From the NCBI GenBank assembly GCA_023128895.1, contig JAGMDC010000002.1:17368-81367 (forward strand): DNA of 64,000 nt, in the 5' to 3' direction. Within the stretch, counting starts at the first letter, position 1; the number at the start of each line of letters is the position of its first letter. The notes beneath the pieces are model-generated. The model was not told where the DNA came from and did no database searches. It saw nothing but the letters and a program-made list of their open reading frames with translations. Position numbers and translations under genes: made by a program. Of the stretch, positions 49,701-64,000 are shown in pieces. Origin of the DNA: Candidatus Parcubacteria bacterium (lineage in GTDB: Bacteria; Patescibacteriota; Minisyncoccia; Minisyncoccales; JAGMDC01).

Positions 49701-52700
49701 AAAAGTATTGTCGCCATTGGAAGCGGAACCGATAGTGGAATGTTCGTAGTAAATATAAATATTTTGCAAAGAATCAAGATTGTCCTTAACTTCTACCCAG
49801 AAAGTAGCAGTCTGATTGGGAGTTGTACCTTCTGTTTTTTCCAGCCAATAATCCAGCAAAGTGGTCCCATTATCATCAGCAAATCTAACATCGTCAAAAT
49901 CAGGCTGGCAATTTCCTTCAAGGTGAAAATCATAATTGCTGGCTCCGTTTGATTCCCCTACTTTTATTTTTATTTGATAATCAGCTCCAGCTCCCGATGA
50001 GCCTGAAATCGGTATTTTTTTTCTATAAAGCCAATTAGTGTCATACCAACTGGTGCTGGTAATACTATCCATATCATACCAGGTCTCATCTCCTCCGCCG
50101 CAAGCTGCTCCTTGCATTTGGGCATACTGAAGTTTTAAAGACTGGGTCTGGGCAAGCAAATTCGCGCTTTGAACCTGATTGCTTATTCTGGCTCTTATTA
50201 TCTCGTTATCAGCCACTCCGCTAATTTCTATGTTTGGATCCGCTTTAGCGCTTCCTGGCTGGACATTATTAGCATTATCATACCAGCGATAAGTGGTTTG
50301 ATTAAAAGTGAGAACACTTATGGATTTGGAATTTTTATTATTATTCTCATTGCCCTCGGTAATATTGCCATCCCTGTCAATATGAACATAAATGTCATAA
50401 CTTCCTGAGCTCGTTGGTGTCCAGTTTACCTGGACTGTTTGAGTTATTCCAGAAATTAAATTAGTAATCTCTTGAGCTGAACCTATTTGATTGCCGGTTC
50501 CGTCAGGATCTCCATCATAGAATTTGACTAAAATTTCTGGCTCTTTGTAGGCGCGGAACCAACAATCCCTATAAGAATCCAGCGCGACCCAACCTGAACC
50601 TCCGTCCTGTGCTGCATTATTATCCGGGAAGTCTGAGCCAGTATCTACGTCTGCTGTCCAGCACCAGCAATTGGTAGTACTTGTTCCAGTGCCTTCAGCA
50701 ACAATCCAATATTTTGTTCCGTTGCTTAAGGTAGGAATAGTGGAAAATTCAAAATCATACCAGGTATAAGTAGCGGGACCGCTGGTGGGCTGGAATGTTG
50801 CCGTTGCTATAACATTACTGTCATCAGGCAAATTTCCGCTGTCTCCTTGAATCTTTATTGTCAAAGTGCCTGAAGTGCCGTAAGTTTTAAAATTTAAAGC
50901 CACTCTAGACAATCTAAAATCATATGAAGGAATAAAAGATTGAGCCGTATCTGTAGTTGAATATACATAATAACAGCCGCTTATAATAGCGCTATCATTT
51001 TCCTTATCCCAATGCTGGTCAGTAAAAATCTGACCATAATGACTTCCCCCGCTGTTTCGAACAGTAGCTGAGATAGCAATTTCCTCATTAGCTTCAGGAT
51101 TTTTATCACTAAAAACAATATCGCTTGAATTTAAATAAAAATCAGGAAGGATAGTAAGAGTAGTGGTTCCAGGAATTAGCACGGCAATATCTGGAGAAGC
51201 TGTCCCGCTTGATAGGGTAACATCGCTGGCAGGGGTAGTAATTTGAATCTCCAGGGTTTCACCATCAGCGGCTGATGAGCCAACATCTAAAACTACATAA
51301 ACACACATTGATTGAGTAGTAGAAATCGCCGCTGATGAACCGGTAAATGTTGAGGTACCATTAGCTCCGCTGAACCCATCCGTATCAGTCGAGCCAAATT
51401 GGGATTCAGATCCGCCATAGTCTTCACTCGCGCAATCATAGGGAGTTGTGGTATCAAATTCATAAAATATTTTAATATTGTCAAGATTAGTCTGGGCGTT
51501 AACCGTGCCTTGTTCAGTAATAGTAATACCGGTAACATTGCAAGACCCAATATGGTGCTTGATAACAAAAGTTCCCACACATTCATTAGTGCTTGGAACA
51601 GCCAAATCCGCAACCTGGGAACGAACTGTCGTAACCTCAACATCGCAATGAACCTTTACTTCCACATAGTCTGTTTTGAGAAGATTAGCCGTGTCGCCTG
51701 CTAAGTCTGCATGGGTAGCAACTAAATGAAGATAGCCGCTGGCGTCAATATAATTTGAAAAATCGGATGTATAGATTTTGGTAATTTCCTGGTCAGCTGT
51801 CTTATTAGCATGAGAGCCTACTACTTCCCAGCTAGGGGTACCACTAAAATTCCATATGTACAAATAAGATGTTTTGCTCACCGTATGTCCTTCCCATTTA
51901 ACCTCCATCTTATAAATGGTGCTGGAGCTTTCGGCAATATCGAATTTAAAGTGATGCGTGGCCGAATCAGACCTATCGCCATTGGTTTCATATCTGATAT
52001 CATTAGAAGATTCTATTTCTGTATAAGAAGTTACCTCTGTTTCATCTGTTATCGCTGGACCAGAAGCGGGAGGATGGGTTGCCTCGCTCATTTTTTTATA
52101 AAACCACTTATTGGTTCCTCCTCCACTGGTAAAATTATAAGTAGTGGTCGCATCCGAGGCAATCTGCCACTGCCTCGCCTCCTCAAAAATAGCTGTCTGA
52201 GGCCAGGCCTCGGTCAATTTTAATGGGCCTAATAAATAAAAATAAGGGCTAACATCAGGCGCGTCAAAGGTATATTCCAACTCATAGCTCTCCCCTGCTT
52301 TCCACTGAACATCCCAAACAATACTCTTTTCTTCTTGAACTATGGAGGTTGAACCTCCATAGTTCGTTTCTTCTATCTCAAAACTCGCTGGAATTTGTTC
52401 TATAACCTGCCCGGAAAAATCTTGATTCGCTTTGATTTTCAAAGTCATTTCATAATCCGCCAACGGGTAAATTCTGGTTGGCCCGACTCTTTCCACGTCA
52501 AAAGGCACAAGGTCGCGAGTTTCAAATTGGTCAGTAACTTCGTAGCCGTTATCAAGATTGGTTAATTTTATTTCATACACCCCTGTCCCGGCAATTTGGT
52601 AATAAGCAAAATAATCCGGTTTATCAATAACATTGTTTGGCCCGCATTCTTCTGACATTTGAACTTCCGGGCTGGTTACCCAGCCTTCGGGAGAAATAAT

Positions 52701-54632
52701 TTCTAATTTTAAATTCGCGTCGCAAATAGTATGGCCGTTATCCATAAGAGCCGCCATCTGCAAATAAGCTTCCTCTCCGGGTAAATAAATTGACTTGTTC
52801 GTATTTATCGCCAAAACTCCCCAGCTGAAATCTCTTTCAAGTTCCTGAACATTTCCTTGCTCCTCAATTCTTAAAATAATTTTATAGAGACCTGGTTTAA
52901 ATCCTTTCGGTTTTCTTATTTTTAACAAAAATTCGCCGTTGTTTTCTAAAACAAAATCAGGTAAAATTTCAAGAGTTTCTCCTTCTGAATTTATAACTCG
53001 GACAGATGTATTAATATTTTCCCAATAGTTAATAAGGTTTAAAGCTTCTCCAACCGAAGCTAAAAACCCTTCATTAATTTTTTTGTAATGAAACTGGAAT
53101 TCTGGTTCCTCATTTCCCTCAAAATCTTTTTTAAAAGTAAGCAAGGCAATTTCTGGCTCCTCAACCTTTTTTTCCTCTTCATAGATTGCCTCCAACCAAA
53201 TACTATCAAGATAAATTGATAATTCTTTTCCTTGAGGATTATTAGTTAAAGCAGTAAATTTTATTTTAAGCAGCTCAAAATTTTCCCAGTTAAGACTTGA
53301 AGGAAGTTCAAAATAGAAATACCCTGAATTTTGAGCATTGGAATATCCTTGATTTTGCTGAAGAGTAACTATGTTATTCCAATTTTCGCCATTTAAAGAC
53401 CAATCAATCAAGAGCTCGTCATCTTCTCCTTCTCGCCCCTGACTGGCAAAAGAAATACCAACTCTGGCTTCCTTAAGAGCTCCTATCCGTTCGGGCAGGA
53501 CAAAACCGGAATAAGTGACGCTTGACTGATTAAGAAAAATAGTTACTTCTTCATCTTTTACTTCCTCTTCTATTTTTTCTTCTATTTTTTCCTCGCCTTC
53601 TTCAAAAATCTCTCCATCAACTGTCGGAAGAATTATTTCTGGTTCTTCGTCCTCAAATTCCTCTTCCGTTTCCTCTTCCGTTTCCTCTTCCGTTTCCTCT
53701 TCCGTTTCCTCTTCCGTTTCCTCTTCTGCTGTTTCCTCTTCTGTTGTTTCCTCTTCTGTTGTTTCCTCTTCTGCTGTTTCCTCTTCTGCTGTTTCCTCTT
53801 CTGCTGTTTCCTCTTCTGCTGTTTCCTCTTCAGGTTCTCCAATTTCTTGTACCGTATCGCTCACCTCTTGCAACTCATCATTAGTAATTCCGGTTTCCAT
53901 TTCCTGGGCTGAAACCCAAGATAAAAAGGAAAATCTGGAAAAAAACTTTTGAAGAAAAGTCTGCTCTTCCAGCGGCATTTCCTCTTCAGTTGTTTCCTCT
54001 TCAGTTGTTTCCTCTTCAGTTGTTTCCTCTTCTGCTGTTTCCTCTTCTGCTGTTTCCTCTTCTGCTGTTTCCTCTTCTGCTGTTTCCTCTTCTGGCGGCA
54101 CAGTAAGGAAAGTAATTTCTTTAACATTTAAAAAACATGAATTTTCTGAATTAAATTCAGCCGGAAAGGATTCCTCGTCCAATTCTCGAATCAAAGCGTT
54201 TTGGCCATTCTGACAACTTACCTCGCCATCGCCAGTAGATAAATTTTCCTCCCAAACAGTAGGAAAAATTTCTATTTTTACTTCATTAGAAGGAATAGCA
54301 TAAATAACTAAAGCAGAAAAACCGGCAAAAAGAAATATAATGGCTGACAATGCATAACGAGGGCTTTTTAAAAAAATATCGGTTAACTTTTTATACCAAA
54401 AAATTCTTTGAGCCTTGGAATATTTGCTCAATTTCTTTTTTTTCTCTTTCTTGGTCTGATACTTAGCTATTGCTTCGCTGGTGGTAAACCAGTTCCTTCC
54501 CAAGGAAACCGCTTTGCCTTTTATCTTCCCTTTTCTAATTAAATATCCGATATAGTCCGGGGCATAGCCAGATATTTTGGCTGCCTCTTTGAGAGAAATA
54601 TATTTATTTTTATCTGTTTTCTTTTTTTTCAT
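40740..54632 (-). CDS. giant (4630-aa) membrane-anchored surface protein with HTH, TM helix, acidic repeats, DUF2341/LamG, 14 RCC1 repeats, beta-helix-like repeats and a WxL-like C-terminus
   Basis: Uninterrupted 13.9-kb ORF. N-terminal KYISLKEAAKISGYAPDYIGYLIRKGKIKG (HTH_17-like). TM helix ALSAIIFLFAGFSALVIYAI. (EETA)n arrays. WYDTNWLYRKKIPISG...DDVRFADDNGTTLLDYW...FWVEV (DUF2341). 14 copies of YHTCAV-x-NAGNAYCWG-x5-GRLGDG. Confidence 0.85.
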   Translation of the reverse strand: MKKKKTDKNKYISLKEAAKISGYAPDYIGYLIRKGKIKGKAVSLGRNWFTTSEAIAKYQTKKEKKKKLSKYSKAQRIFWYKKLTDIFLKSPRYALSAIIFLFAGFSALVIYAIPSNEVKIEIFPTVWEENLSTGDGEVSCQNGQNALIRELDEESFPAEFNSENSCFLNVKEITFLTVPPEEETAEEETAEEETAEEETAEEETTEEETTEEETTEEEMPLEEQTFLQKFFSRFSFLSWVSAQEMETGITNDELQEVSDTVQEIGEPEEETAEEETAEEETAEEETAEEETTEEETTEEETAEEETEEETEEETEEETEEETEEEFEDEEPEIILPTVDGEIFEEGEEKIEEKIEEEVKDEEVTIFLNQSSVTYSGFVLPERIGALKEARVGISFASQGREGEDDELLIDWSLNGENWNNIVTLQQNQGYSNAQNSGYFYFELPSSLNWENFELLKIKFTALTNNPQGKELSIYLDSIWLEAIYEEEKKVEEPEIALLTFKKDFEGNEEPEFQFHYKKINEGFLASVGEALNLINYWENINTSVRVINSEGETLEILPDFVLENNGEFLLKIRKPKGFKPGLYKIILRIEEQGNVQELERDFSWGVLAINTNKSIYLPGEEAYLQMAALMDNGHTICDANLKLEIISPEGWVTSPEVQMSEECGPNNVIDKPDYFAYYQIAGTGVYEIKLTNLDNGYEVTDQFETRDLVPFDVERVGPTRIYPLADYEMTLKIKANQDFSGQVIEQIPASFEIEETNYGGSTSIVQEEKSIVWDVQWKAGESYELEYTFDAPDVSPYFYLLGPLKLTEAWPQTAIFEEARQWQIASDATTTYNFTSGGGTNKWFYKKMSEATHPPASGPAITDETEVTSYTEIESSNDIRYETNGDRSDSATHHFKFDIAESSSTIYKMEVKWEGHTVSKTSYLYIWNFSGTPSWEVVGSHANKTADQEITKIYTSDFSNYIDASGYLHLVATHADLAGDTANLLKTDYVEVKVHCDVEVTTVRSQVADLAVPSTNECVGTFVIKHHIGSCNVTGITITEQGTVNAQTNLDNIKIFYEFDTTTPYDCASEDYGGSESQFGSTDTDGFSGANGTSTFTGSSAAISTTQSMCVYVVLDVGSSAADGETLEIQITTPASDVTLSSGTASPDIAVLIPGTTTLTILPDFYLNSSDIVFSDKNPEANEEIAISATVRNSGGSHYGQIFTDQHWDKENDSAIISGCYYVYSTTDTAQSFIPSYDFRLSRVALNFKTYGTSGTLTIKIQGDSGNLPDDSNVIATATFQPTSGPATYTWYDFEFSTIPTLSNGTKYWIVAEGTGTSTTNCWCWTADVDTGSDFPDNNAAQDGGSGWVALDSYRDCWFRAYKEPEILVKFYDGDPDGTGNQIGSAQEITNLISGITQTVQVNWTPTSSGSYDIYVHIDRDGNITEGNENNNKNSKSISVLTFNQTTYRWYDNANNVQPGSAKADPNIEISGVADNEIIRARISNQVQSANLLAQTQSLKLQYAQMQGAACGGGDETWYDMDSITSTSWYDTNWLYRKKIPISGSSGAGADYQIKIKVGESNGASNYDFHLEGNCQPDFDDVRFADDNGTTLLDYWLEKTEGTTPNQTATFWVEVKDNLDSLQNIYIYYEHSTIGSASNGDNTFIFFDDFPDAAINGTKWTSATVGNGSITVADSLAKLHNSGDPSEAKITTNNSFAFGNITEIKAKIKTGNNDYTVIGLKDTDNYLYQFVNYAPAWEVARKYFQLKKSGTSVNRDLIIAFDTWYEIKMFSRGNFAEYWQGDTLIHKETYSSYCPSSTATAPILLQAHGFAPAITDHLQADWVKVRKYAYPEPEIGTSESQESTTTQATLWKGDNSNTTPSDGDPITSSLLDSQSNALESYEEENCSVANPAEITSTSKGEWDWVIKNNGAPDSTAYCFRMIEDDGVSFTTYTNYPKLTTSGVGIIVSGVAYTDEGSNTLNTSGGAIKLVNSTTGDTFSDSDGTDASGNWSISVTTTPSAGDVLTIWIDGASADGTLVFKYGDGCAGGNCTGLHLYQNRVIIRNEHTVNVTNADLADCDNDTTTTGTECEDTEIGFTSDLSGTYNLVVSDTRKLYIWTTDTFEPGGTVTTSPSNDGTDTNVNGDLLIQSGAALSMGANALSIGGDYTNYGTFSKSSGQDTSFTATASGFEITENIFEDAIFSGSNGGWSFTDSAIINGNLTMTAGTLSNTSNLTVKGGTADGSGILTFSDGTHLANIKTISAGAYHTCAVSNAGNAYCWGSDGNGRLGDGGTTEKSVPQRVHKGEAASGDFDTDWLANVKSISAGGYHTCAVSNAGNAYCWGEGGNGRLGDGGTTEKLVPQRVHKGEAASGDFDTDWLANVKSISAGDYHTCAVSNAGNAYCWGYALYGQLGDGQAETKSVPQRVHKGEAASSDFDTDWLANVKSISAGAGYESGKSHTCAVSYAGNAYCWGESEDGRLGDGQIADDKSVPQRVHKGEAVSGDYDSTETWLANVKSISAGSYHTCAVSNAGNTYCWGDALYGQLGDGQKVDKSDPQRVHQGEAVSGDYDGTHLANIKIINAGNGYTCAVSNAGNPYCWGAADNGRLGNGQTSGDYTTPVRALKGEAAASDIADMDLLGDVKPISAGGHHTCAVSNAGNAYCWGVAGNGRLGDGQTTTDKSIPQRAHKGEAATSDTAVADFFNNIKIISAGGHHTCAVSNTNNAYCWGMAANGRLGDGQTTVDKTTPVRVLKGEAVIGDHDGINLTSVKTISARNGYTCAVSNADNIYCWGDGADGRLGDGQTADKSVPQRVHKGEAASGDYDADWLANVKNISTANAHTCAVSNASNAYCWGYAGYGQLGDGQETETPQTTPQRVHKGEAVTGDFDTDWLANVQSIAAGANHSCAVSHAGNAYCWGYAGNGRLGDGQTAIKSIPQRVHKGEAVSGDYDTDWLINVKSISADYRHTCAVSHAGNAYCWGYALDGRLGDGQETDKTVPQRVHKGEAVSGDYDTDWLANAKSISTGYHHTCAVSNAGNAYCWGYPANGRLGDGQTTLDKTTPVRVLKGEAVTGDHDNTNLTNIKTIIAGYYHGCAWSNADNAYCWGVAGNGQLGDGQISDKSVPQRVHKGKGEESVSDFLRPIFTLISSGNFGGSNAWTFVSLSFGDGSTSGTSASQNSGAISVSNLLIIESSHILNAGSKTWTLSGSGTPFTNKGTFTASTSTVAYEGTSATTITALTGSNKYNNLTIGNVSDNNTVTYTSGGNTDVGGNFLITSSGTGTHTFVAPSSLAVAGNWTNNDAFTHNSGTVNFNGAGAQTINSSNSWYDLSITTSTARTITFESDVAITQTIVSGGSLTLTGISGQLLTLAPSAPTTQWLLNLNAAATESISYVSVSYSNANSGDTIQAADGTNDNGGNNENWNFGVGITVSGVAYTDEGSNTLNTSGGAIKLVNSTTGVAFSDSNGTDASGNWSISVTTTPSAGDVLTIWINGATGGEKGTIVLKYGDGCTGGDCTGLHLYQNRVIIRNEHTGSVTNANLADCDNNSTTTGIECTDAQIGFTSDLSGTYNLVVSDTRKLYVWTTDTFEPGGTVTTSPSNDGTDTNVDGDIHIEGTGILTMGANALSVGGDFYNEGTFNKTNPQTTTFTATATGHTITDGGENFDTIIFNGTNGGWSFADSTIIDVDLTMTAGTLSGTNDITAKGDVKCGASCGTISLTSASTFKQSVGTSKSFGPQIVGANNWTFYNLIFDSSAGTPTITFNGTNTGTFTVSNDLTLTNTGTSLAVDNNTNNRILDINNDVSIGAGVTFSAAPSAAFTVGGSWTNSGAFTHGSGTVTFDAVDAGHTVNAGSSSFSNVIFSGVSGEWSPLTNTMTIIGDLTMTNGIFNTTSGTANVTANGDVKCGASCGVISMTTTNTFKQSVGTSKSFGPQIAGADNWIFYNLIFDSSAGTPTITFNGTNTGTFTVSNDLTLTNTGTSLAVDNNTNNRILDINNDVSIGAGVTFSAAPSAAFTIGGSWTNSGAFTHGSGTVTFDAAADTKTLSGTLNGSSAFHNLTFGQTSGTATWNLSSALEVNNDLTIDFGTLGQGAHNINLDKNLAINANGNFTSGTGIFIFDGTTGPYTWTNAAAIDDLGAVEINGTTLVINLGSSVKAASVNIYVSQTLSANGSNTLTLTGSGTPLTRGGTFTASTGTVEYTSGSGVTALASAAMTGSNAFNNLIINGTGTFTLGVDIESGNDLTVTSGTLAGTNNVTAKGNITGAGTVTLTSGTFEQIVALNKTFGSSSGANNWTFNNLKFNNSDGAATRAITPNAGTGDIIISGTLTLGDSGTQTITFDNETSNDRVFDINGSILISSQGIFSASSTASFRVAANFTNNGTFTANSGTVTFDTTGISVLDGSGTPAITFHNFTSTTAGKTLKFTATKTFQINGNFLIQGADSNQIIINSTTTTQWLINHQGTEDVTYAHISNSGCAGSSTNISLENTSTDGGNNGSCWLFPSLSFTLDAASKSLDLNSVNTFTATATTTLTVSTTATFGYNLTAYETDNMRHTAYSSVTISDWAGTNAVPTVWTGTCIDNTQCGWGYNTGDADLTQFAANEYAGFVGSSQAPGDIVAKSTAPVTNDATTITYRASVLATQSAGPYKTTIIYIVTPEF
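42600..43590. repeat. two near-identical ~585-bp tandem units inside the giant gene
   Basis: 42631-42885 and 43216-43470 are almost identical; the track antisense ORFs differ at 3 of 84 aa. Offset is 585 bp (195 aa). Confidence 0.9.
43880..44430. repeat. dispersed ~550-bp direct repeat, copy A (partner at 48260-48808)
   Basis: Encodes G-I-T/I-VSGVAYTDEGSNTLNTSGGAIKLVNSTTG...TDTFEPGGTVTTSPSNDGTDTNV in both copies. Offset is about 4378 bp. The two copies flank the RCC1 array. Confidence 0.85.
45300..47945 (-). repeat. array of 14 RCC1-type repeats
   Basis: 14 CWG-x4-5-G-[RQ]-LG-[DN]-G cores were counted in the translation. Period is about 50-60 aa. Confidence 0.85.
48260..48808. repeat. dispersed ~550-bp direct repeat, copy B
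   Basis: See 43880-44430. Confidence 0.85.
53650..53835. repeat. 12-nt tandem array encoding (EET[AET])n, array 2
   Basis: ttcctcttc[ct]g[ct]tg units are visible. Confidence 0.9.
53985..54095. repeat. 12-nt tandem array encoding (EET[AT])n, array 1
   Basis: Same unit as 53650-53835. Confidence 0.9.
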
Positions 54633-54761
54633 TTTTAAAATCTCGAGAAGAATCTCGAGAGCCGAGATTCTTAATTCTACCTATATTTTAACAGATTTTT
54701 AGAAAATTAGACATTGTGGATAAGTTAAGCCAATTTTATTCATCTGATTATTCCCATTATT

Positions 54762-54797
54762 AAAAATCCCCACACATTTTGTAAAATGTATGGGGAT
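54762..54797 (-). terminator. terminator after the ykgJ-like gene
   Basis: ~14-bp inverted repeat ATCCCCACACATTTT/AAAATGTATGGGGAT followed by a U-run in minus sense. Confidence 0.65.
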
Positions 54798-54823
54798 GTA
54801 AAAAAATTTTAAGAAAACAAACG

Positions 54824-55090
54824 CTAATCAAATCTAAACCCGCATTTATCGTTTGTAATACATTCAGATTTAGTTCTCGGATATTTTCTGCAATTCAGGG
54901 GTCTTATCAAATAAATAGAACAATAAGATTTTCCATCAGATTTGAATTTTAGAAAAGGGCATTGAATAGGCAGCCTGCAGCATTCGCCGCAATTAATGCA
55001 TTTTCCTTTCCTGTTTTTGGCAATGGGCAATACGGAACACAAAGTCCTTTTCATTTTCGCATACCATGTATTTTTCTTTTTGTCTACCAT
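54824..55090 (-). CDS. YkgJ-family CxxCxxCC cysteine-cluster protein
   Basis: 88 aa. CINCGECCRLP motif. Confidence 0.7.
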   Translation of the reverse strand: MVDKKKNTWYAKMKRTLCSVLPIAKNRKGKCINCGECCRLPIQCPFLKFKSDGKSYCSIYLIRPLNCRKYPRTKSECITNDKCGFRFD

Positions 55091-55126
55091 ATTTTTATTG
55101 ACAAACGAATTTTAATTATGGCAAAT

Positions 55127-55483
55127 TCATTTTTGTTCTTCTATGGAATTTTCTATTTCATCCATTTCTTTCATAATTGCCTGATAGAGTTTTTTCTTAT
55201 TTTCATTCCATGCTTGCGTTCGAGCAGCTTCAAAATTTTCATCTGCTGCTTTTCTATACCCTGCATCAAAATACAGACGTGCTCGCCGAAGATTAAATTG
55301 AATTGGCGCTTCAGGATCATCTGATTTTTCAACTTGTTTCTCTTGTTCGATTGTCCAACTAAGTAGAAGCTTTCTGGCTTCAGGGTCTTCTACTCCTTTT
55401 TCTTTGAGTAGTCGAATTAACTTTTGTTCGGGTTCCTCTTCTTTTTTAAATTCAAATGTTGGTAATTTTTCTCTCATTGTCAA
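55127..55483 (-). CDS. hypothetical acidic protein
   Basis: 118-aa ORF overlapping the upstream HAD gene by 4 nt. No motif recognised. Confidence 0.4.
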   Translation of the reverse strand: MTMREKLPTFEFKKEEEPEQKLIRLLKEKGVEDPEARKLLLSWTIEQEKQVEKSDDPEAPIQFNLRRARLYFDAGYRKAADENFEAARTQAWNENKKKLYQAIMKEMDEIENSIEEQK

Positions 55484-56142
55484 AATTTCTTTAATACTTC
55501 TATCAATTCACTTAGATTGTGGATTAAATAATCCGGCTCGGCCGCCCTTAATCTTGAAGTTGAATGATAACCCCTTGTGATTGCAATAGTCGTCAATCCA
55601 AACTTTTTGCCTATCTCTATTTCTTCGGGAGAATCGCCAATGATTAATGTTTCGCTTGGTTTATAATTATGCTTCTCTAAGTAATCCTTAAGCTTTTCTT
55701 TTTTATTACGTCTTTTCATTGAGCTATCCAATGCGGAATTAGCTAGCACTTCAAAGATATACTTATTTATTTTTAGTCGATTGAGCTGATTATTGATGCC
55801 TTTAATTGTATGATTGCTAAGGATAACTGATTTAATGGAGTGGTGACTGAGCCATTTTAGCAATAACTTTGCCCCTTGCCGTAATCTGCATTTGGCGGCT
55901 CTTAGTTCATAAAATGAATGGAAAACTTCGCCTAATTTCTGTGATTTTCTTTGTAATTCTTCTTTGTCGCATCCATGTTGAGTGTAAAAATCAATAGCTG
56001 GAATGATCATCGTATCTCTATATGTTTTAAGATCTACGGGTGTGCCGCCAAATATTTTTAATACATGATTATCTGCATCCATACAGGCACGAGTGTCGGA
56101 AAGTAATGTGCCATTCCAGTCGAATATAATTAACTTTTTCAT
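55480..56142 (-). CDS. HAD-superfamily hydrolase
   Basis: 220 aa. Motif I variant IIFDWNGTLL and motif IV IIGDSPEEIE. Confidence 0.75.
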   Translation of the reverse strand: MKKLIIFDWNGTLLSDTRACMDADNHVLKIFGGTPVDLKTYRDTMIIPAIDFYTQHGCDKEELQRKSQKLGEVFHSFYELRAAKCRLRQGAKLLLKWLSHHSIKSVILSNHTIKGINNQLNRLKINKYIFEVLANSALDSSMKRRNKKEKLKDYLEKHNYKPSETLIIGDSPEEIEIGKKFGLTTIAITRGYHSTSRLRAAEPDYLIHNLSELIEVLKKF

Positions 56143-56187
56143 AATGATATTTTACTTTTGATTTGAGTCGGCCAAAATCAATTTCAA

Positions 56188-56832
56188 TTAATGCCCGAGC
56201 GGCGGGATTTCAAGAACAAAAAGGGCACGCGGGAAAATTCCAAAAAGTTTAAACTTTTTTTGCTCAATAATTTTCAAATTAAATCTTTTAAAAATTGCTT
56301 GCCACTCGGAAGCCCTCTTAAAATTAAAAGGCATATTTTCTCGAGGAGGTCTAAAAAGTTGGAAAAGATTAAATAAAATATCTAAAAAAGATTGAAGTTT
56401 CTTTTGCCAAAAATTTTCATAGAGTTCCTCAAAAATAATCACTCTTGATTTACTAACCCTTATCGCTTCACCCAAAATCCTCTCCGGTTTATCACAATGA
56501 TGAAGAACAGAAATAAGCAAAGAAATATCAAAACTATGAGCAGCAAAGGGAATGGTTTTGCCGTCATATAAAACAAACGGCAAATTTATCTGATTAAAAT
56601 CAATCACATCAAGAAGAGTAATTTTGGCTTTTCTTTTTTTAGAAATATTTTTAGCGATAAAACCTCGCCCGGCTCCGATATCTAAAACCGTTGAACCAAA
56701 AGGAACAAAATTTTCAAAAAGAGCAGAATATTTCTTTGCTCTTCTTTCTCGTACTTTTTTAATAATTTTTTGAACAATTTTCATTTTGCCAATTTCTGCA
56801 TTTCTTCTTTGATAATTTTCCTTTCGTCCCAT
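56188..56832 (-). CDS. class I SAM-dependent methyltransferase
   Basis: VLDIGAGRGF motif I. Start taken at M105 (56832) or M121 (56784); the track's longer N-terminus runs through GC-rich non-coding sequence. Confidence 0.7.
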   Translation of the reverse strand: MGRKENYQRRNAEIGKMKIVQKIIKKVRERRAKKYSALFENFVPFGSTVLDIGAGRGFIAKNISKKRKAKITLLDVIDFNQINLPFVLYDGKTIPFAAHSFDISLLISVLHHCDKPERILGEAIRVSKSRVIIFEELYENFWQKKLQSFLDILFNLFQLFRPPRENMPFNFKRASEWQAIFKRFNLKIIEQKKFKLFGIFPRALFVLEIPPLGH

Positions 56833-57332
56833 GGGATTTTCTTTTCTCCAAGCACGCACATTCAGAATTCTCAGCCCTTGCCAGTAATAACAACCACATC
56901 GTTGGGCGGCGTAATGGCTCAACGGCAATGGCGGCGAAGCCTCCGACATACGACGCAAATCGCTTATGGTGGTGTTTATTAGACGAAGTCCGAACTTATT
57001 ACGAACAGAACCCCGACGCTGATTGATTGCCACAAAGCGATAATCCTGTCCAGCGTTTCCGCTCGCCTTCGCTTCGCTACGGCGAGCAAAACAGAAAAAT
57101 TTTCTAAACATTTTTTTAATCGCCCTCTCGCAAATTTTTTTCAATTTAATTAAAGAAAAGAAAATTTTTCTGTTTTGATATTCTGCTGTCGCAGAATTGC
57201 GGAAACGCTTTTCAATCCTTGACGCTCGGGCGGGGCGGGAAGAAAAAGGGGTGTGGGGAAAATGAATTCCCGCCCCGCCCTCGCTTTGGACGCCGACGGA
57301 ATTTATGCCAGCGTTAGCTGGCGCGCCGCTAT

Positions 57333-58238
57333 TTATTTTTCTTCTGCATTATCTACTCTTTGCCGGTTGCGTATATTTAATTTCAGATTGAATTTGTTGT
57401 TATACTGATAATCGTGCAGTTTTTCTATAAAGTTTATCTTTTTTTCAGCGAAATGATCTTTTGACGGAATAAGGAATTCTTTTATTTTTTTATCCAGCCA
57501 AGTAGAAAATTTCTCGCATGAAAACAAAATCAAAAAGAAAAGCAGAAGTAATGACAGGTTTGATAGTGAAAAATCTCCATACGCCCAGAGATGACCGAAA
57601 AAAATGGCGGACGGAAAAGTCACCAATAAAATGGCAAAAAGAATATTCTTCGAAATGTAGAAGTACTTGAAAAACGGCTCAATATTTTTCTTTTCATCTT
57701 TTGGCGGAGGATTCTCACCCTTACCATAATGATATTTGTCGATAGCCGTTTGAATTCGTTCATAACGAGCATCGGATAACCAAAACAAAAATTTCAACAC
57801 TCTATTAGCTAACTCGTTGAGTATGCGTTTGAAAAAGAGTCTATCAGAGAGATGATTTGCCACTAAAATCTCTACAAACTCATTCATTGTAAAACTTTTA
57901 CTTGATAGCTGGTGGTTAACTTTTTGGGTAGCGTTATCAAATGTAAATTCGCTAGCATCCGAAAAAAAATTTGTGACTTTTCTTTTGTATCCCTCTCTTT
58001 CGGTGATGATATAGCTGGTCTTTTCCCCCTCTTTTTCGGGTCGAGTCATTTCTACGGAATAAAAAAATCCGCGATCTAGGACAGCGATTTTGATAAACAT
58101 CCGCCTTCCATCCTTGAAATAGGGCGTATTTTTCGGATAAAAACGAATCAGAGAAAATCCCATTTCATTCTGAAATGCTGTAATTGACTCATCAGAGCCT
58201 TGGCGTGTATAAAGTTTTACGAATTCTTCGCTGTTCAT
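57333..58238 (-). CDS. membrane protein: ~190-aa soluble N-domain plus two TM helices
   Basis: 301 aa. TM helices ILFAILLVTFPSAIFFGHLW and LSLLLLFFLILFS. No recognised family. Confidence 0.45.
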   Translation of the reverse strand: MNSEEFVKLYTRQGSDESITAFQNEMGFSLIRFYPKNTPYFKDGRRMFIKIAVLDRGFFYSVEMTRPEKEGEKTSYIITEREGYKRKVTNFFSDASEFTFDNATQKVNHQLSSKSFTMNEFVEILVANHLSDRLFFKRILNELANRVLKFLFWLSDARYERIQTAIDKYHYGKGENPPPKDEKKNIEPFFKYFYISKNILFAILLVTFPSAIFFGHLWAYGDFSLSNLSLLLLFFLILFSCEKFSTWLDKKIKEFLIPSKDHFAEKKINFIEKLHDYQYNNKFNLKLNIRNRQRVDNAEEK

Positions 58239-58312
58239 AGGATTTTACGCTTTTAATATTCGCCCGATTTTTTTTCGGGGGGATTTCAAAATCAATAAGG
58301 GCGGTGGGTGGG

Positions 58313-59290
58313 TTAAGAATTATTTTTTAAACCTTCTTTTGAATCAATATCAATCTCTAAATTGCCAGTGGTTAATTTCTTTTTGTTAATCCAAACAAAA
58401 CCTTTGTTTGGGGTTATAACTGCAACATCCACTGGTCCACCAACACCAGGCATATCACCTGGATTGCCTTGGATACCATCAGAAAATCTTTGTATAGCCG
58501 AAGTAGTTTGAATCATTAAAACACAAAAATCAATAGCATCTTGCAAAGTCATCGTTCCCCATTGAATTACATACTCTAATCCTCTTAATTGTTTGTTTAT
58601 TTCTTCCTGTCCTAAATTTTGGGCACTAGTATTTACAAAAGGCAAATTTCCAATTCTGCCGTCAAATCCTAAAACAATTCTAGAAACAACATCAATTTGT
58701 CCTATCCAAGAAGCACCATATTCTTTGCCTTTTTCCTTGCTATCTCGCTTTTTTTGAATTTCTCCGGGAATATAACAGATATAAACTTCATGGCTTCCGT
58801 CTTTATTATATCCAGCAACTAAAAGATTTATCATGTCAACGCCACCAACCCCTTCTTTAACTTGGCCTTTCGTATCTTTAAATTTAAATTTAACAACATT
58901 ATTCTCAACTTTAGTTTCAATGACTTCTCCCCCTTGCCGCTGAATATCATTTTTAATCTGTTCGGGAAGATTTTTTAATTGTTCTCGATAATTATATTTT
59001 TTATCAAAAAGATAGTATAGTTTATCAGCTATATCTTTTACACTCAAATCTTTTACATCTACTTCATGCTTAAATTCATCAATAAACTTACTAATATTTT
59101 TCATTATTCCATTCTCTGGCAAGAATGCTAAACCCGTAATAGCAACCCCGACACGATCATTTATTTGAAATAATTTAGAGGCATTATCACTGCCGATTCG
59201 TGCCATTCCTTTATGGTTACGAAAAGATTGTCTGCTGTCCGCAGAAATAACAATGCCCTCTGGTGTTGTTGTGTTTAATACTAATGACAT
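58313..59290 (-). CDS. proteasome beta/HslV-like Ntn-hydrolase with a predicted Ser1 nucleophile
   Basis: 325 aa. After Met removal, SLVLNTTTPEGIVISAD aligns position for position with HslV TTIVSVRRNGHVVIAGD (Ser1, Asp17). A Lys follows in ASKLFQI. Also LLVAGYNKDGSHEVYICYIPGE (GxD..G..LY..dP.G block) and C-terminal PVDVAVITPNKGF. Confidence 0.55.
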   Translation of the reverse strand: MSLVLNTTTPEGIVISADSRQSFRNHKGMARIGSDNASKLFQINDRVGVAITGLAFLPENGIMKNISKFIDEFKHEVDVKDLSVKDIADKLYYLFDKKYNYREQLKNLPEQIKNDIQRQGGEVIETKVENNVVKFKFKDTKGQVKEGVGGVDMINLLVAGYNKDGSHEVYICYIPGEIQKKRDSKEKGKEYGASWIGQIDVVSRIVLGFDGRIGNLPFVNTSAQNLGQEEINKQLRGLEYVIQWGTMTLQDAIDFCVLMIQTTSAIQRFSDGIQGNPGDMPGVGGPVDVAVITPNKGFVWINKKKLTTGNLEIDIDSKEGLKNNS

Positions 59291-59291
59291 A

Positions 59292-60278
59292 TTATTTTGT
59301 TGAATTAATTATTAATTGTGGAAAATTATATAAAACATCTCTCACTAATGTTTTATCTGTACTTTGAAATGTTGTTTTCGTGATATCAACCAAGAAAAAA
59401 TATCTTAAATCATTTATATCACGATCAGTTTTTTTCGACCAAAAAAGTATTTCGCCATTTCCTTTTAATGCTCCGCCTGAGATTTGGAAATCTACATATT
59501 GCGACCAAGATTTTATTTGCTTTTTAAACTCCAAAATTAAGTTATCCACCTCGCTTGTGCTCAATGACGAATGAAATAATTTCATCTGTTGGTTATCACC
59601 TTCAGTAAAAGAAATATGTGAGGTGCTACCATATTCTTTCCCAAATTGAAAATAATTATCTGAGTCTACGCCAGACCAAACAATCTTATACGGAGAATTA
59701 TCATCGGGAATTATATAACCGCTTTGAGTTCCAGCACTAGGCATTACAGGAGATATTATCAAATAATTACATTGAGCCATAAATAATTTTCCCGTTGAAT
59801 TATATAGCTTATCGTAATTTGATTTATCGGCAACAAATTGAATATTAAGTTTAAGTTCATTTAGCGTAGTCCCGTTTTGATTCAATAAATTTATTAAACT
59901 ACTGCTATCAATTAAATTTTTTTCAAAATCTGAGATATCGCCTTGATGTATGATTATATTTGAAGGATTGCTCCACTGGAAAGAATGAGTCGTTTGTGGA
60001 AACATAAATTCAAGGTTTAACTGAATTTTACCAAAAAAACTTTTTTCCTGCTCTATTTCATTAATGGCTATTTGCTTTAACATTATTGCTCGTGCTCGCC
60101 TTGGCTCGCGTTCTAAGTAGCCTTTTTTTGCAATAGCATCTAACAAATCTTTAGCGGTCTGTTTTGAGGATACCCCTAATTTTTCAGCAAGCTCAAAAAG
60201 AGTGGGTATTTTCCCTACCTTTTGTCCCTCATATATGATTTTTACAGCTTCACGCTGGCGATCAGTTAACTTTTTCAT
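59292..60278 (-). CDS. LexA-type winged-HTH N-domain fused to an unknown ~250-aa C-domain
   Basis: MKKLTDRQREAVKIIYEGQKVGKIPTLFELAEKLGVSSKQTAKDLLDAIAKKGYLEREPRRARAIML aligns well with the LexA DNA-binding domain. No S24 Ser/Lys peptidase motifs follow. Confidence 0.55.
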   Translation of the reverse strand: MKKLTDRQREAVKIIYEGQKVGKIPTLFELAEKLGVSSKQTAKDLLDAIAKKGYLEREPRRARAIMLKQIAINEIEQEKSFFGKIQLNLEFMFPQTTHSFQWSNPSNIIIHQGDISDFEKNLIDSSSLINLLNQNGTTLNELKLNIQFVADKSNYDKLYNSTGKLFMAQCNYLIISPVMPSAGTQSGYIIPDDNSPYKIVWSGVDSDNYFQFGKEYGSTSHISFTEGDNQQMKLFHSSLSTSEVDNLILEFKKQIKSWSQYVDFQISGGALKGNGEILFWSKKTDRDINDLRYFFLVDITKTTFQSTDKTLVRDVLYNFPQLIINSTK

Positions 60279-60286
60279 ATGCCTCT

Positions 60287-60316
60287 ATTATATACCTTAC
60301 ATAAGTAAGGTGTCAA
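60287..60316 (-). promoter_or_regulatory. consensus promoter with a palindromic operator; near-leaderless start
   Basis: Minus sense has TTGACA, an 18-nt spacer containing CCTTAC-TTAT-GTAAGG, then TATAAT. The -10 ends 8 nt before the ATG at 60278. Confidence 0.6.
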
Positions 60317-60328
60317 GCCCTCAAACTA

Positions 60329-61111
60329 TTATTTTCCAGAAATGAATGATTTTATTCTATTATTAGCCAAATCAACATATTTTTTATCCTTTTCAATGCC
60401 TACCCAATTTCTACCAAGGGCTTTTGCGACAACTGCTGTTGTCCCGCTTCCCATAAATGGATCCAAAACTAAATCTCCTTTACTGCTGGCGGAAAGTAAA
60501 ACTTGTTGAATCAATTTAAGTGGTTTTTGTGTTGGATGTGCTTTTATTCCATTTTCATCTTTCAATCTTTCTTGCCCTCTACATAAACCAAAAACCCAAT
60601 CAGTATCTTTCATTTGCTTTCCACCATTCATTTTTTTCAAAAATTCATAATTAAAAGTATATTCTTTGGAATTTTTATTTTTTACAGACCAAATCAAGGT
60701 TTCGTGATTATTTGTGAATCTTCGTCCGTTAAGATTTGGTAGCGCGTCAATTTTAACCCAGATAACATCGTTCAAAAACCACAACCCCAAATCTTGCATA
60801 ATTTTTCCAACACGAAAAATATTGTGATACATACCTATAACCCAAAAAGTTCCCGTCGGTTTTAATATTCTTTGGCACTCTTTAATCCAATTTTTGGTAA
60901 AATTGTCGTAATCTTCATAACTTTCAAATTGATCCCATTCATCATCAACAGGGATAATTTCAGAACCGTCAGCCCTTTTCAATCTTTTGCCTTTTGGTAA
61001 TTGTAGATAATAAGGGGGATCTGCAAAAATTAAATCAACGGAATTATCAGAAAATTTTTTCATTTCCTCTATGCAATCGCCACATATTATTTCATTGATA
61101 AATTTTTGCAT
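60329..61111 (-). CDS. beta-class N6/N4 DNA methyltransferase
   Basis: 260 aa. Motif IV is FADPPYY (N-terminal) and motif I is DPFMGSGTT (C-terminal). Confidence 0.85.
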   Translation of the reverse strand: MQKFINEIICGDCIEEMKKFSDNSVDLIFADPPYYLQLPKGKRLKRADGSEIIPVDDEWDQFESYEDYDNFTKNWIKECQRILKPTGTFWVIGMYHNIFRVGKIMQDLGLWFLNDVIWVKIDALPNLNGRRFTNNHETLIWSVKNKNSKEYTFNYEFLKKMNGGKQMKDTDWVFGLCRGQERLKDENGIKAHPTQKPLKLIQQVLLSASSKGDLVLDPFMGSGTTAVVAKALGRNWVGIEKDKKYVDLANNRIKSFISGK

Positions 61112-61117
61112 AGAAAA

Positions 61118-62239
61118 TTAAAAATTGTAAACGATGAGATGCTCAACATCTCTGTTGTTTCTACCTTTAACATTGTAAAGGTATGTCTTTTCAAAACTAT
61201 CTATTTTTATACTTTTTTTGTTGTTGTATAAATTGTAGATAAAAGGAGTTTTTTTTATTATCAAAATAAAATTTGCTTTTGTTTTGTATAAACAATTTGC
61301 TAATCGTTCTTGGTCTTTCTTGTCAAAAGATTTTTTTTCGTAATCACTAAAATCTGTGTCGTATGGGGGGTCGAGGAAAACAAAATCTTTTTTTGAAACA
61401 TCATGGTTATTAAAAATCTTTTCAAAATCTTGATTTTTTATTATTGTATTTTTAAATAGATTTTTGACTTCATCACTGAAAATATAATCTACTTTGCTTC
61501 TGAAATCCTTTTTATTGTAGCCAATGCCACCATAGGGAATATTGAAATGTCCATTTGTATTAAAACGAAACATTGATCCATAACAAAATTCCCTAATAAA
61601 ATAATAATTTGCGATTTTTTTAGGCAAGCTAATTTTGTATTTGTTGCCATTAAAATTCATAACATCTCGAAAGTGCATATAAAACCCGCTTCTAAAAGCC
61701 GTTTCTATATTTTTTTGGAGATCGCCTTCTGGCAATTTTCCTCTTTGTTTTTCAATTTCCCTTGTTCTGTAAATTTTAGAAATTAAATTTAAACTAATTT
61801 GCTTTAGCAAATTTTGTTCATCTAAACAGAATTTATTGAGAAATAGCCCATTAAAATGATCTTCTTTTTTTTTCAGAATATCATTGATTCTTTTTGCCAA
61901 TTCTTTTTTATCAATTTCGGCTCTTTTATATTTCTCATATAAATTTACAATTTTATTTTCAAAGATTCCTATATATTTTGGAATCTTTTCCCAATTTATA
62001 ACATATTCATAAAGTTCTTTTTCAAATTTTTCTCGCTCGTTTTTATCTTTCAATAAATTATAAAAATCTGTTAATTCCTCGCAAATATCATTTATAATCG
62101 CTTTTTTTGGTTTTAACTGAAAAAAAATACCTCCGCCGCCAAAAAAAGGTTCAATATACCGCTCGTATGACGGGATTAAACCTTTTATGTGCGAAAATTC
62201 TTTTGTTTTGCCGCCGGGCCATTTAATAAGTGTTCGCAT
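61118..62239 (-). CDS. Dam-family (D12 class) DNA adenine methyltransferase
   Basis: 373 aa. KWPGGK, EPFFGGGG and FLDPPY motifs. Longer than typical Dam because of an internal insert. Confidence 0.8.
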   Translation of the reverse strand: MRTLIKWPGGKTKEFSHIKGLIPSYERYIEPFFGGGGIFFQLKPKKAIINDICEELTDFYNLLKDKNEREKFEKELYEYVINWEKIPKYIGIFENKIVNLYEKYKRAEIDKKELAKRINDILKKKEDHFNGLFLNKFCLDEQNLLKQISLNLISKIYRTREIEKQRGKLPEGDLQKNIETAFRSGFYMHFRDVMNFNGNKYKISLPKKIANYYFIREFCYGSMFRFNTNGHFNIPYGGIGYNKKDFRSKVDYIFSDEVKNLFKNTIIKNQDFEKIFNNHDVSKKDFVFLDPPYDTDFSDYEKKSFDKKDQERLANCLYKTKANFILIIKKTPFIYNLYNNKKSIKIDSFEKTYLYNVKGRNNRDVEHLIVYNF

Positions 62240-62248
62240 ATTTTAAAA

Positions 62249-63067
62249 TTAATCAAGATAAGTTTTTTTAATAGAATCTAACGCTTTTGTAATCATTCCT
62301 GCTTTTTCTTTGTATGCGCTCAAAACTACATGATATCCGTCATCTGATTTACACACAAAATCCCAAAAATCTTTTCCAATTAACAGCTCGTCATCGGCAA
62401 AAAATTGTCGTACTCTTTCCTGCTTCCATTCTTTACCTTCGCCATATCTGTTATAGGCGGTTGCAAAATGGATTATAATATTTTTATCTTTTGGTAATGT
62501 ATTTGATAAAATCACAAATTGTTCTAAAAGTGCCTCTTTTTCAGAGCGCGCTTTTTTATTATCTAAATCACCGCCAATTTTTAATTCAATTAAAAAATTA
62601 TCGCCTGTCTTTTTATCAATTAAATAATAATCGCTCTCGTGTCTTTTAGTTTTTAGTTTGTTGTCTTTTGGTTTTACTCTCAAAAATTGATAATCTTCAA
62701 TCGTCGGAGGTGTTATCTCTCGTCTTTTATATTTCTCAAGTAATTCAGCAATTCCTCTTGTTTGCTCAACGCCCAAAGGTCCCTCAACTCTTTTTTTGAC
62801 TTCGTAGGAAAAACCAGCGATGTTTATCGCCAATTTTTCAAGCATATTCCCTAATGAACTATCTAACGAGCGGACAAGGGAAGAATAATATTGAATATCT
62901 GATCCAAGCGCTGCTATAAAAACATTATGGATTTTCATATTAATTGTGCCGTTTGGATTATCTACTTCGCCCTCGTGGCGCGCTTGAAATCCTTCCGCAT
63001 AAGATTCAATCGCTGTATGAACAAGTGATCGGATTGCTTCTTTTTTGTCTAAAGTATTGTTTGTCAT
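62249..63067 (-). CDS. type II restriction endonuclease candidate (PD-(D/E)XK)
   Basis: 272 aa. HESDYYLID...FLIELKIGGDLDNKKA (D...ELK). Sits directly upstream of two MTase genes. Family uncertain (recalls TdeIII-like enzymes). Confidence 0.5.
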   Translation of the reverse strand: MTNNTLDKKEAIRSLVHTAIESYAEGFQARHEGEVDNPNGTINMKIHNVFIAALGSDIQYYSSLVRSLDSSLGNMLEKLAINIAGFSYEVKKRVEGPLGVEQTRGIAELLEKYKRREITPPTIEDYQFLRVKPKDNKLKTKRHESDYYLIDKKTGDNFLIELKIGGDLDNKKARSEKEALLEQFVILSNTLPKDKNIIIHFATAYNRYGEGKEWKQERVRQFFADDELLIGKDFWDFVCKSDDGYHVVLSAYKEKAGMITKALDSIKKTYLD

Positions 63068-63071
63068 ATTT

Positions 63072-63158
63072 TTATTTCATTAAGACATCAAGCGAAACAC
63101 CGAGCGCGTCCGCAATTTTTTTAACAGTATCAATAGTCGGGTTTGGTGTCGCTCCCGC
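63072..63158 (-). pseudogene. 3' remnant of an XRE-HTH (C-protein-like) gene truncated at tRNA-Ala
   Basis: Hand translation gives AGATPNPTIDTVKKIADALGVSLDVLMK*, preceded by an in-frame TAG 11 nt from the tRNA-Ala 3' end. Its stop lies 4 nt before the endonuclease ATG. Confidence 0.45.
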
Positions 63159-63172
63159 CTACATATCGCATT

Positions 63173-63248
63173 TGGTGGACCTGAGCGGATTCGAACCGCT
63201 GACCTCCTCGTTGCAAACGAGGCATTCTGCCAACTGAACTACAGGCCC
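63173..63248 (-). tRNA. tRNA-Ala (UGC), CCA encoded
   Basis: GGGCCTG/CAGGTCC acceptor with G3-U70. Anticodon arm CCTCG-TTTGCAA-CGAGG. T-loop TTCGAAT. ACCA end. Confidence 0.9.
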
Positions 63249-63260
63249 AAAATTATAAAA

Positions 63261-63399
63261 TGTGGGCGAGGAAGGAATCGGAGAGTTGCCCGAAGGCGGT
63301 GTTTCACCTCGCTTTGCTCGGCGAAACGCGGGGGGAGGTCCTCACCACACCACACCATACATAAAAATTTATGAACACCTGCAGTGTTCAAAGTTTTTA
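63261..63399. repeat. GC-rich tRNA-flanking element B with a duplicated tRNA-Ile 3' end
   Basis: 63261-63282 is identical (22 nt) to 63400-63421, the T-loop-to-3'-end of tRNA-Ile. The interior starts gagttgcc, contains cctcgctttgctcggcg and ends in the hairpin GAACAC-ctgca-GTGTTC. Homologous to 14455-14597. Confidence 0.8.
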
Positions 63400-63401
63400 T
63401 G

Positions 63402-63474
63402 TGGGCGAGGAAGGAATCGGACCTTCGACCTCTGCTTTATCAGAGCAGCGTTCTAACCACTGAACTACTCGCCC
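63402..63474 (-). tRNA. tRNA-Ile (GAU)
   Basis: GGGCGAG/CTCGCCC acceptor. Anticodon arm CTGCT-CTGATAA-AGCAG. T-arm GAAGG-TCCGATT-CCTTC. Confidence 0.85.
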
Positions 63475-63724
63475 AAATTACTACCTTCATTCTATCAAAA
63501 ACAAAAGACCTGTAAAGGTCGCTAGTAACAAAACGCGCCTAAAAGCGCGTTTTGTTATAAATATTTTCATTAGTTAGTTTTTTAGAGTTGTCCCGGATTG
63601 TCTTTTTAGTGTTCAATCAACACTATATAAGGTTGAAAATAGAATTCTCAATTTTCGACCTTAGTCAACGCTAAATTAAATCTTGAAGATTTATAAATAA
63701 ATCATTCAAAAATTTAATTTTAAT

Positions 63725-64000
63725 ATGTTATGATCCACGCACAGGTTCTCCTACGCGTGCCTTGTTACGACTTAGTCCTTCTTACTGAATCCACCTTAGA
63801 ACCTCGCAAGGAGGCGCTTCGGGTGTTCCCAGCTCGCTTGACTTGACGGGCAGTGAGTACAAGACTCAAGAACGTATTCATCGCCACATAGCTGATTGGC
63901 GATTACTAGCGATTCCGGCTTCATGAGGTCGAGTTTCAGACCTCAATCCGAACTGAGACCGGTTTTAAGGGATTAGCTCCGCATTACTGCTTGGCAACCC
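63725..64000 (-). rRNA. rrs: 16S rRNA, 3' portion (continues beyond the window)
   Basis: Minus sense reads ...AAGTCGTAACAAGG...GTAGGAGAACCTGTGCGTGGATCA. Upstream conserved blocks include GTACACACCGCCCGTCA-type sequence (cttgtactcactgcccgtcaag). The exact 3' end is uncertain. Confidence 0.9.

Follow-up and report, generated by a model that had tools for sequence, protein, structure and literature searches.

The 16S rRNA of a Parcubacteria bacterium has lost the CCUCC core of its anti-Shine-Dalgarno (anti-SD) sequence, a loss that is confirmed here by sequence comparison. The SD/anti-SD interaction is the textbook route of bacterial start-codon choice. The DNA analysed, referred to as the window, is a stretch of 64,000 nucleotides. 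It corresponds, in reverse complement, to positions 232-64231 of a metagenomic scaffold of 170 kb, which itself starts inside the 16S gene. The whole explanation put forward, which is considered likely, is that the anti-SD decayed by substitution and was left unreplaced, with translation starts that are free of SD and a minority of transcripts that are leaderless. A/T-biased substitutions would have turned CCUCCUUA into UAACAUAU and so erased the anti-SD with nothing put in its place, in a 16S rRNA that is otherwise normal and full-length.

The 3′ end of the 16S rRNA

At 63723-64000 on the minus strand, the Rfam family RF00177 SSU_rRNA_bacteria is matched with 235 bits over model positions 1244-1533, the match being cut by the window end; this is the 3′ part of the 16S rRNA gene. 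The remainder of the gene lies outside the window, on a source contig that itself begins just ~230 nt further on. The 16S rRNA ends in ...GUAGGAGAACCUGUGCGU-GGAUCA-UAACAUAU, where the usual bacterial form is GGAUCA-CCUCCUUA. Helix 45, CACGCGUAGGAGAACCUGUGCGU (63737-63759, minus strand), aligns to model positions 1499-1519 with the standard pairs, and its loop GGAGAACC retains the two adjacent A residues. On its 3′ side are the conserved GGAUCA (63731-63736, minus strand; TGATCC on the plus strand) and then UAACAUAU (63723-63730, minus strand), whose eight positions are homologous to the anti-SD segment CCUCCUUA in an ungapped model alignment. The last 14 positions of the model, GGAUcACCUCCUUu, are aligned with GGAUCAUAACAUAU without a gap by the Rfam covariance model, and UAACAUAU matches the canonical CCUCCUUA at C +4 and U +6 only. 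On this alignment the tail is homologous to CCUCCUUA and altered by substitution, with no deletion.

An earlier note on this DNA had claimed that the 16S tail lacks the CCUCC core, and alignment to the 16S covariance model, in which the tail is ungapped and CCUCC absent, bears this out. The tail had been transcribed correctly, and the span given for it, 63725-63745, covers GGAUCA together with parts of helix 45 and of the tail. The further claim that no CCUCC follows within ~200 nt also holds, as the nearest downstream CCUCC on the same strand is found 392 nt on, at 63338 to 63334, between tRNA-Ile (63401-63474) and tRNA-Ala (63173-63248). This CCUCC was considered as a displaced anti-SD and rejected. 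It lies past tRNA-Ile and outside the leader-trailer processing stem, and therefore cannot be part of the 16S rRNA.

Other assemblies of the organism carry the same tail. Over 130 nt, from AAGTCGTAACAAGG to the end of the tail, the window is identical to six further contigs assembled from other samples. These were found via the neighbouring HinfI-like gene and comprise the NCBI MAG GCA_030628815.1, three ENA assemblies, and two Logan assemblies. The 16S gene is complete in two of these seven assemblies, with scores of 1254-1290 bits, and GCA_030628815.1 contains it whole at 1290 bits; the full-length copy at 6976-9345 of contig L007, from the same organism, scores 1290 bits. The absence of the CCUCC core is thus established by the covariance-model alignment and by seven identical independent assemblies. 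As a control, 16S genes with the same helix-45 loop, GUAGGAGAACCUG, were taken from bacteria of many phyla; GGATCA is followed by CCTCCT in 121 of 121 (at most 3% exceptions at the 95% bound), and the altered tail is thus more than chance. This set includes just three CPR genomes and describes the general loop pattern rather than a census of Parcubacteria.

Shine-Dalgarno motifs at gene starts

[quoted passage not shown] Most of the starts inspected for the earlier note had been described as A/T-rich upstream and free of GGAGG, and this description is upheld by computing the SD-motif enrichment upstream of the predicted starts. An SD core (GGAG, GAGG or AGGA at -20 to -3) precedes 4 of 48 window genes and a 5-mer 2 of 48, while 3.9 ± 1.7 genes with a core are expected from dinucleotide shuffling of these upstream regions, and 15% of interior coding windows contain one. 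Starts were taken from database calls and a crude ORF rule, and the positional statistics therefore include some wrong starts. SD-using controls show a sensitivity of 41-58% with this crude start calling. Due to this low sensitivity, within-method comparisons were relied on and absolute SD frequencies were left unused.

As the start calls are crude, a test that is independent of picking the correct start was also used. Here an SD core is sought at any candidate start within the first 40 codons, with interior in-frame candidates as decoys. Genomes that keep the anti-SD have a core in 170 of 323 cases (53%), whereas 88 of 256 of their decoys do (34%; p = 1e-5); with true starts, 80-90% would be expected in this positive control. 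The window has no excess over its interior decoys (13/46, 28%, vs. 12/42, 29%), and the same is seen in twelve anti-SD-less related contigs (25/104, 24%, vs. 27/84, 32%). The window and the anti-SD-keeping controls differ in this test with p = 0.002. No SD enrichment is therefore found upstream of starts in the window, against shuffles or against decoys, or in the twelve related contigs, against decoys, by a method whose positive control does detect SD.

Duplex energies and start contexts were calculated for 57-58 genes from ~74 kb of the genome, combining database gene calls and ORF calls. A canonical tail would bind the regions at -25 to -1 with a mean of -2.97 kcal/mol, whereas its binding to random genomic 25-mers is stronger at -4.13 kcal/mol. 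Duplexes of ≤ -4.4 kcal/mol are formed by 22% of upstream regions vs. 41% of the random 25-mers.

Individual motifs close to start codons were noted at three ORFs. On L007, the 113-aa ORF at 3257-3598 (minus strand), which matches no Pfam family, is preceded by a perfect AAGGAGGTGA 6 nt before its ATG. This may reflect chance or a recently acquired gene and, without an anti-SD, no function is evident for the site. Another motif, TTGACAAATAATGRWTTT, lies directly before the ATG of two ORFs of unknown function that look unrelated, 22634-23131 (minus strand) in the window and 6262-6660 (plus strand) on L007.

Start contexts and probable leaderless transcripts

The regions around the starts are poor in G and C and have little structure. 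GC content is 21% at -30 to -1 and 28% in the first 10 codons, vs. 37% in gene interiors, and the folding energy of 40-nt segments is -1.4 kcal/mol at the start vs. -4 to -6 kcal/mol elsewhere. Positional base frequencies show no G-rich peak upstream of the starts. A is found at -3 in 67% of genes, while -1 is occupied by U in 65% and by G in 2% (p = 2e-7 against the upstream T frequency), and ATG makes up ~98% of starts. The related contigs have the same low GC, with U at -1 in 60% of starts.

SD-independent loading of the 30S subunit usually rests on low structure and A/U-richness, and A37 of the initiator tRNA can serve as pairing partner for a U at -1. In the proposed mechanism, translation would start without SD/anti-SD pairing, with the 30S subunit loading where the mRNA across the start codon is rich in A/U, poor in G/C, and unstructured. 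Start choice would rest on the AUG itself, aided by A at -3 and by U at -1, the latter of which may lengthen the pairing with A37 of the initiator tRNA. The ribosome may find the start in this way, possibly with a role for bS1.

It has also to be considered that most mRNAs could be leaderless, with 70S ribosomes starting on a 5′-terminal AUG so that both SD and anti-SD become needless. The operon at 60278 fits this, as a consensus sigma-70 promoter and the ATG are found together within 60276-60316 on the minus strand. TTGACA (60316-60311) is separated by an 18-nt spacer from TATAAT (60292-60287), and 8 nt lie between TATAAT and the ATG (60278-60276). All 12 of 12 consensus positions are matched, and this is the sole such TTGACA-18-TATAAT match in 54500-64000, where ~0.02 would be expected from base composition. 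The first gene of this operon encodes a LexA-DNA-binding-domain (Pfam) protein. The earlier note had described the operon as leaderless or nearly so owing to the short distance from the -10 box to the ATG, a distance confirmed here, and its mRNA is probably leaderless. Across 57 genes, -10-like hexamers end 5-9 nt before the ATG in 13, compared to 7.7 ± 2.6 when the -18 to -1 regions are shuffled (P = 0.034). The near-exclusive use of ATG would also suit leaderless initiation, as would the TATAAT seen 8-11 nt before an ATG in several relatives. However, the excess of -10-like hexamers is small and confounded by extreme A/T-richness, and position-specific base frequencies show no TANNNT peak at -12 to -7. 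Promoter-like sites overall are no commoner than in shuffles (33 vs. 34.9), and many genes within operons overlap or have very short spacers and must start internally. It is thus unlikely that most mRNAs of this organism are leaderless. Leaderless starts are likely for some genes but not for most and would be a minority mode at most. The preferred explanation, in which SD-free starts on unstructured A/U-rich leaders predominate, accommodates such a minority, with the 60278 operon as a probable example.

Tail variation among relatives

Related 16S genes were collected from metagenomes by searching for this helix 45 with GGATCA behind it and then a base other than C. The search gave 119 matches, about half of which have the Parcubacteria-type stem (CAY...RU), while the remainder are eukaryotic 18S-like sequences and bacteria with UCUCCUUU. 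As the scan selected for a non-C base after GGATCA, it shows how the tail varies and says nothing of how frequent the loss is. The stem type CAY..GUAGGRGAACCUG..RU is common to 57 related metagenomic 16S genes. [quoted passage not shown]

CCTCC is absent within 60 nt in all 57 distinct Parcubacteria-type trailers. Their positions +1 to +8 are nearly all A or T, with C at +4 in 20 trailers and T at +6/+7 in ~90%. The tails of the relatives form a graded series that runs through UCUCCUUU, UCACAUUU, UUACAUUU, UAACAUUU, UAACAUAU (the window), and UUUAAUUA. Three relatives (L161, L196, L150) have UCUCCUUU, a tail with one substitution that could still pair with GGAG. No SD is found upstream of the ORFs of these three, which form a small sample. 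Because relatives with UCUCCUUU are SD-less as well, SD use appears to have been given up first, which suggests that it was dropped before the tail decayed. The loss would then be clade-wide, with the idle tail drifting after SD use had been abandoned.

Altered tails were also seen outside this group. In a number of non-CPR bacterial 16S genes (L138, L144, L151, L166, L190 and others) the end reads GGAUCA-UCUCCUUUCUAUGGAG, with a C to U change at the first C. The tail of L152 has an insertion, GGAUCAUCACCUCC.

The pre-rRNA trailer

The tail is followed by an A/T-rich 3′ trailer of variable length, which reaches to a conserved box (63670-63722, minus strand; mean GC of 14%). The mature 16S 3′ end would lie within this trailer. 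Measured from GGATCA, the box is a median of 20 nt away in 54 relatives (range 14-61 nt), and this organism has the longest spacing, 61 nt. The box, GUUGAC (63664-63669), and a hairpin, UAAGGUCGAAAAUUGAGAAUUCUAUUUUCAACCUUA (63628-63663), together form a pre-rRNA trailer element (63628-63669, minus strand) that is found in 54 of 57 related trailers. Of the 11 pairs predicted for the hairpin by RNAalifold, 9 are preserved by compensatory changes. Among the relatives L137-L255 the box is GUCGAC-like, the hairpin has a GAGAAUUC apex, and both are located just 3′ of the 16S tail. The element is probably involved in pre-rRNA processing or in protein binding. No Rfam family matches it, and a low-threshold scan of the trailer and the tRNA spacer gave nothing convincing.

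Further downstream, CGGGACAACUCUAAAAAACUAA (63574-63595, minus strand) would provide the 3′ strand of a long leader-trailer stem around the pre-16S rRNA. It is complementary, with one G-U pair, to TTAGTTTTTTAGAGTTGTTCCG, which is located ~150 nt upstream of the 16S 5′ end (L007 ~6825-6846). This is presumably an RNase III processing stem. The stem motif CGGGRCAACTYTAAGAAACT recurs in relatives, and CGGGACAACUCUAAGAAACU comes after the hairpin; in this organism the latter motif is what pairs with the sequence upstream of the 16S gene to make up the leader-trailer stem.

The 150-nt spacer between tRNA-Ile and tRNA-Ala (63249-63400, minus strand) has a folding energy of -46.7 kcal/mol (z = -3.3) and no Rfam match. 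Within it, 63261-63283 repeats 23 nt of the tRNA-Ile 3′ end (63398-63420), and the spacer could be a tRNA remnant or a small RNA. Insertions also occur near the 16S 3′ end in relatives. L201 has a match to a group II intron domain at 2380-2950 (35.6 bits) close to the 3′ end, and the 16S gene of L196 has a gap of ~630 nt at ~1671-2303, again close to the 3′ end. Care is therefore needed when annotating the 3′ end in this clade.

Decay or replacement of the anti-SD

Instead of having decayed, the anti-SD could have been replaced, with the new tail UAACAUAUUA... pairing with a new A/U-rich upstream motif. Tail and upstream regions are both A/U-rich, so that some pairing is always possible, and ACAUU at +3 to +7 is common to several lineages. 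However, the real tail binds the regions at -25 to -1 with a mean of -2.31 kcal/mol, no better than random genomic 25-mers (-2.34 kcal/mol), and 95% of 200 shuffled tails bind the upstream regions at least as well as the 10-nt tail does. By these duplex energies against shuffled tails, no upstream motif complementary to the variant tail was detected, and replacement pairing was rejected on this test. The tails also differ in sequence and length among relatives while their start contexts are alike, and this variation leaves no conserved alternative tail with matching motifs that would make a co-evolved SD/anti-SD pair. Amin et al. (PMC6107228) likewise found no co-evolved SD/anti-SD variants in 128 taxa. 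A replacement is accordingly very improbable. Decay by substitution remains the preferred explanation, as a tail that drifts between conserved flanking elements points to loss of function and not to a replacement pairing.

It is hardly credible that the tail is an artefact or belongs to a non-functional copy, be it through misassembly at the end of a contig, through a pseudogene, or through an insertion that pushed the anti-SD downstream. In favour of such a view, the source contig starts within the 16S gene, insertions are frequent in CPR rRNA genes, with one of 876 nt and a LAGLIDADG ORF in this 16S gene, and a CCUCC is present 392 nt downstream. Against it, the sequence is identical in seven assemblies from different samples, two of them with a complete gene of 1254-1290 bits, each position of the tail has its counterpart in the canonical one, and the same state is found in 57 related sequences.

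The organism and its genome

By sequence, the organism is a member of the Parcubacteria (CPR) close to Nealsonbacteria. Its ArgRS has a match of 100% identity at NCBI, in a protein that is labelled Candidatus Parcubacteria bacterium, and the nearest named relatives of this ArgRS are from Nealsonbacteria and other Parcubacteria at ~61% identity. The rRNA genes also fit the CPR in that they are unlinked, the 16S gene is interrupted by an insertion with a LAGLIDADG ORF, and the 23S gene has a group I intron. The 876-nt insertion in the 16S gene (L007 7737-8612, 16S positions 762-1637) encodes a LAGLIDADG endonuclease (ORF 7890-8507) and is missing from all related 16S genes sampled. The 16S-tRNAIle-tRNAAla cluster and the 23S-5S genes (27557-31262, minus strand) are ~32 kb apart, with protein-coding genes between them on the same strand. 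The group I intron of the 23S gene is found at 28088-28363 (56.9 bits).

Further features of the window were recorded. A tRNA-like gene at 20237-20308 (plus strand) matches the Rfam tRNA family with 49.9 bits and is assigned no anticodon by ARAGORN; its anticodon arm has an apparent 4-bp stem and an 8-nt loop, AGUUGCAC, which contains UGC. A giant ORF of 4630 aa (40740-54632, minus strand) has a GC content of 42-48%, compared to 31-39% in the rest of the window, and its counterpart in other assemblies is cut or of different length. Defence and restriction genes are dense at 8447-13098 and at 60329-63067 (minus strand). They include HsdM, an OLD-family AAA/TOPRIM nuclease, DUF3800, a HinfI-like endonuclease, and two DNA methyltransferases, with the HinfI-like endonuclease and the two methyltransferases directly downstream of the rRNA-tRNA cluster.

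Relation to known anti-SD-less systems

Loss of the anti-SD is already on record for this group. In the work of Tsurumaki et al. 2022 (PMC9297842), the anti-SD motif is detected in only 48% of Parcubacteria 16S genes, and the lineages lacking it overlap with those without uL1. The present organism shares with these Parcubacteria the phylum-level group, the lack of CCUCCU, reduced ribosomes, and a small genome. Both of the traits tested are found in it, namely membership of the Parcubacteria/CPR and the absence of CCUCCU at the 16S 3′ end. With regard to the L1 stalk, the 23S segment is of normal length (241 nt vs. 250 nt), a finding that applies to the rRNA only, as rplK-rplA is outside the ~74 kb covered. 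In contrast to the present analysis, Tsurumaki et al. give the detection rate and the uL1 overlap and do not extend to start contexts, tail sequences, or trailer architecture. Among the papers searched, none with an analysis of start contexts in these Parcubacteria was found. The organism is thus a further well-documented case of a loss on record for about half of the Parcubacteria. The decay by substitution, the lack of a replacement, the trailer architecture, and the A(-3)/U(-1) context are new as far as found, yet expected.

Losses in other bacteria are similar in outcome. Amin et al. 2018 (PMC6107228) reported 128 of ~20,600 taxa without the motif, in which SD is generally absent. Anti-SD-less taxa (Amin 2018 PMC6107228; Lim 2012) include Chryseobacterium, Elizabethkingia, Riemerella, Blattabacterium, some Mycoplasma, and Carsonella. 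In these taxa too, CCUCCU has been lost together with SD, no compensating pairing has appeared, and the losses are clade-wise. They differ in belonging to other phyla and in being independent losses, and the CPR is not among the groups named in the survey. Nikolaeva et al. 2020 tied anti-SD loss to ribosome reduction in tiny genomes. In addition, Era, which binds GAUCACCUCC, has been lost in most CPR (review, PMC10582724).

The 3′ ends of eukaryotic 18S and mitochondrial small-subunit rRNAs (...GUAGGUGAACCUGCGGAAGGAUCAUUA) resemble that of the window (GGAUCAUAA...) in having helix 45 and GGAUCA with no CCUCC. They differ in that the tail here arises by base-by-base substitution and is followed by a long trailer of bacterial type, making the resemblance convergent. 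Cap-dependent scanning or a similar process is unsupported in the window organism.

A further comparison is with the SD-independent initiation of the Bacteroidetes type, where leaders are A-rich and the anti-SD, though retained, sees little use. Work on Flavobacterium johnsoniae is reportedly the basis of this picture. Similarities are the A-rich, G-poor, unstructured start regions, A at -3, and the near-exclusive use of AUG. However, most Bacteroidetes keep the CCUCC that is gone here, and the strong preference for U at -1 is not known to be a feature of Bacteroidetes.

Implications

The current picture of anti-SD loss is unchanged by these results, which add detail to a trait already on record. 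Clades in which the SD/anti-SD interaction has been erased reveal the minimal alternative for start selection. There are practical consequences for annotation: gene callers and start models that assume SD misplace starts in these genomes, and rule-based trimming or extension of 16S annotations gives a wrong 3′ end. The tail series CCUCCUUU, UCUCCUUU, UCACAUUU, UAACAUAU, beside processing elements that are conserved, would illustrate cleanly how a sequence decays neutrally once its function has been abandoned. This decay occurred in a group that is also without Era, a protein that binds the same sequence.

More tentatively, it is possible, though doubtful at present, that a deep clade of Parcubacteria uses a distinct and conserved non-SD start code, with SD abandoned before the anti-SD decayed. 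Such a code may consist of an unstructured A/U-rich landing zone with A(-3)/U(-1), read via extended pairing with the initiator tRNA. If true, this clade would be a natural model of 'Kozak-like' initiation that proceeds clade-wide without any rRNA-mRNA pairing.
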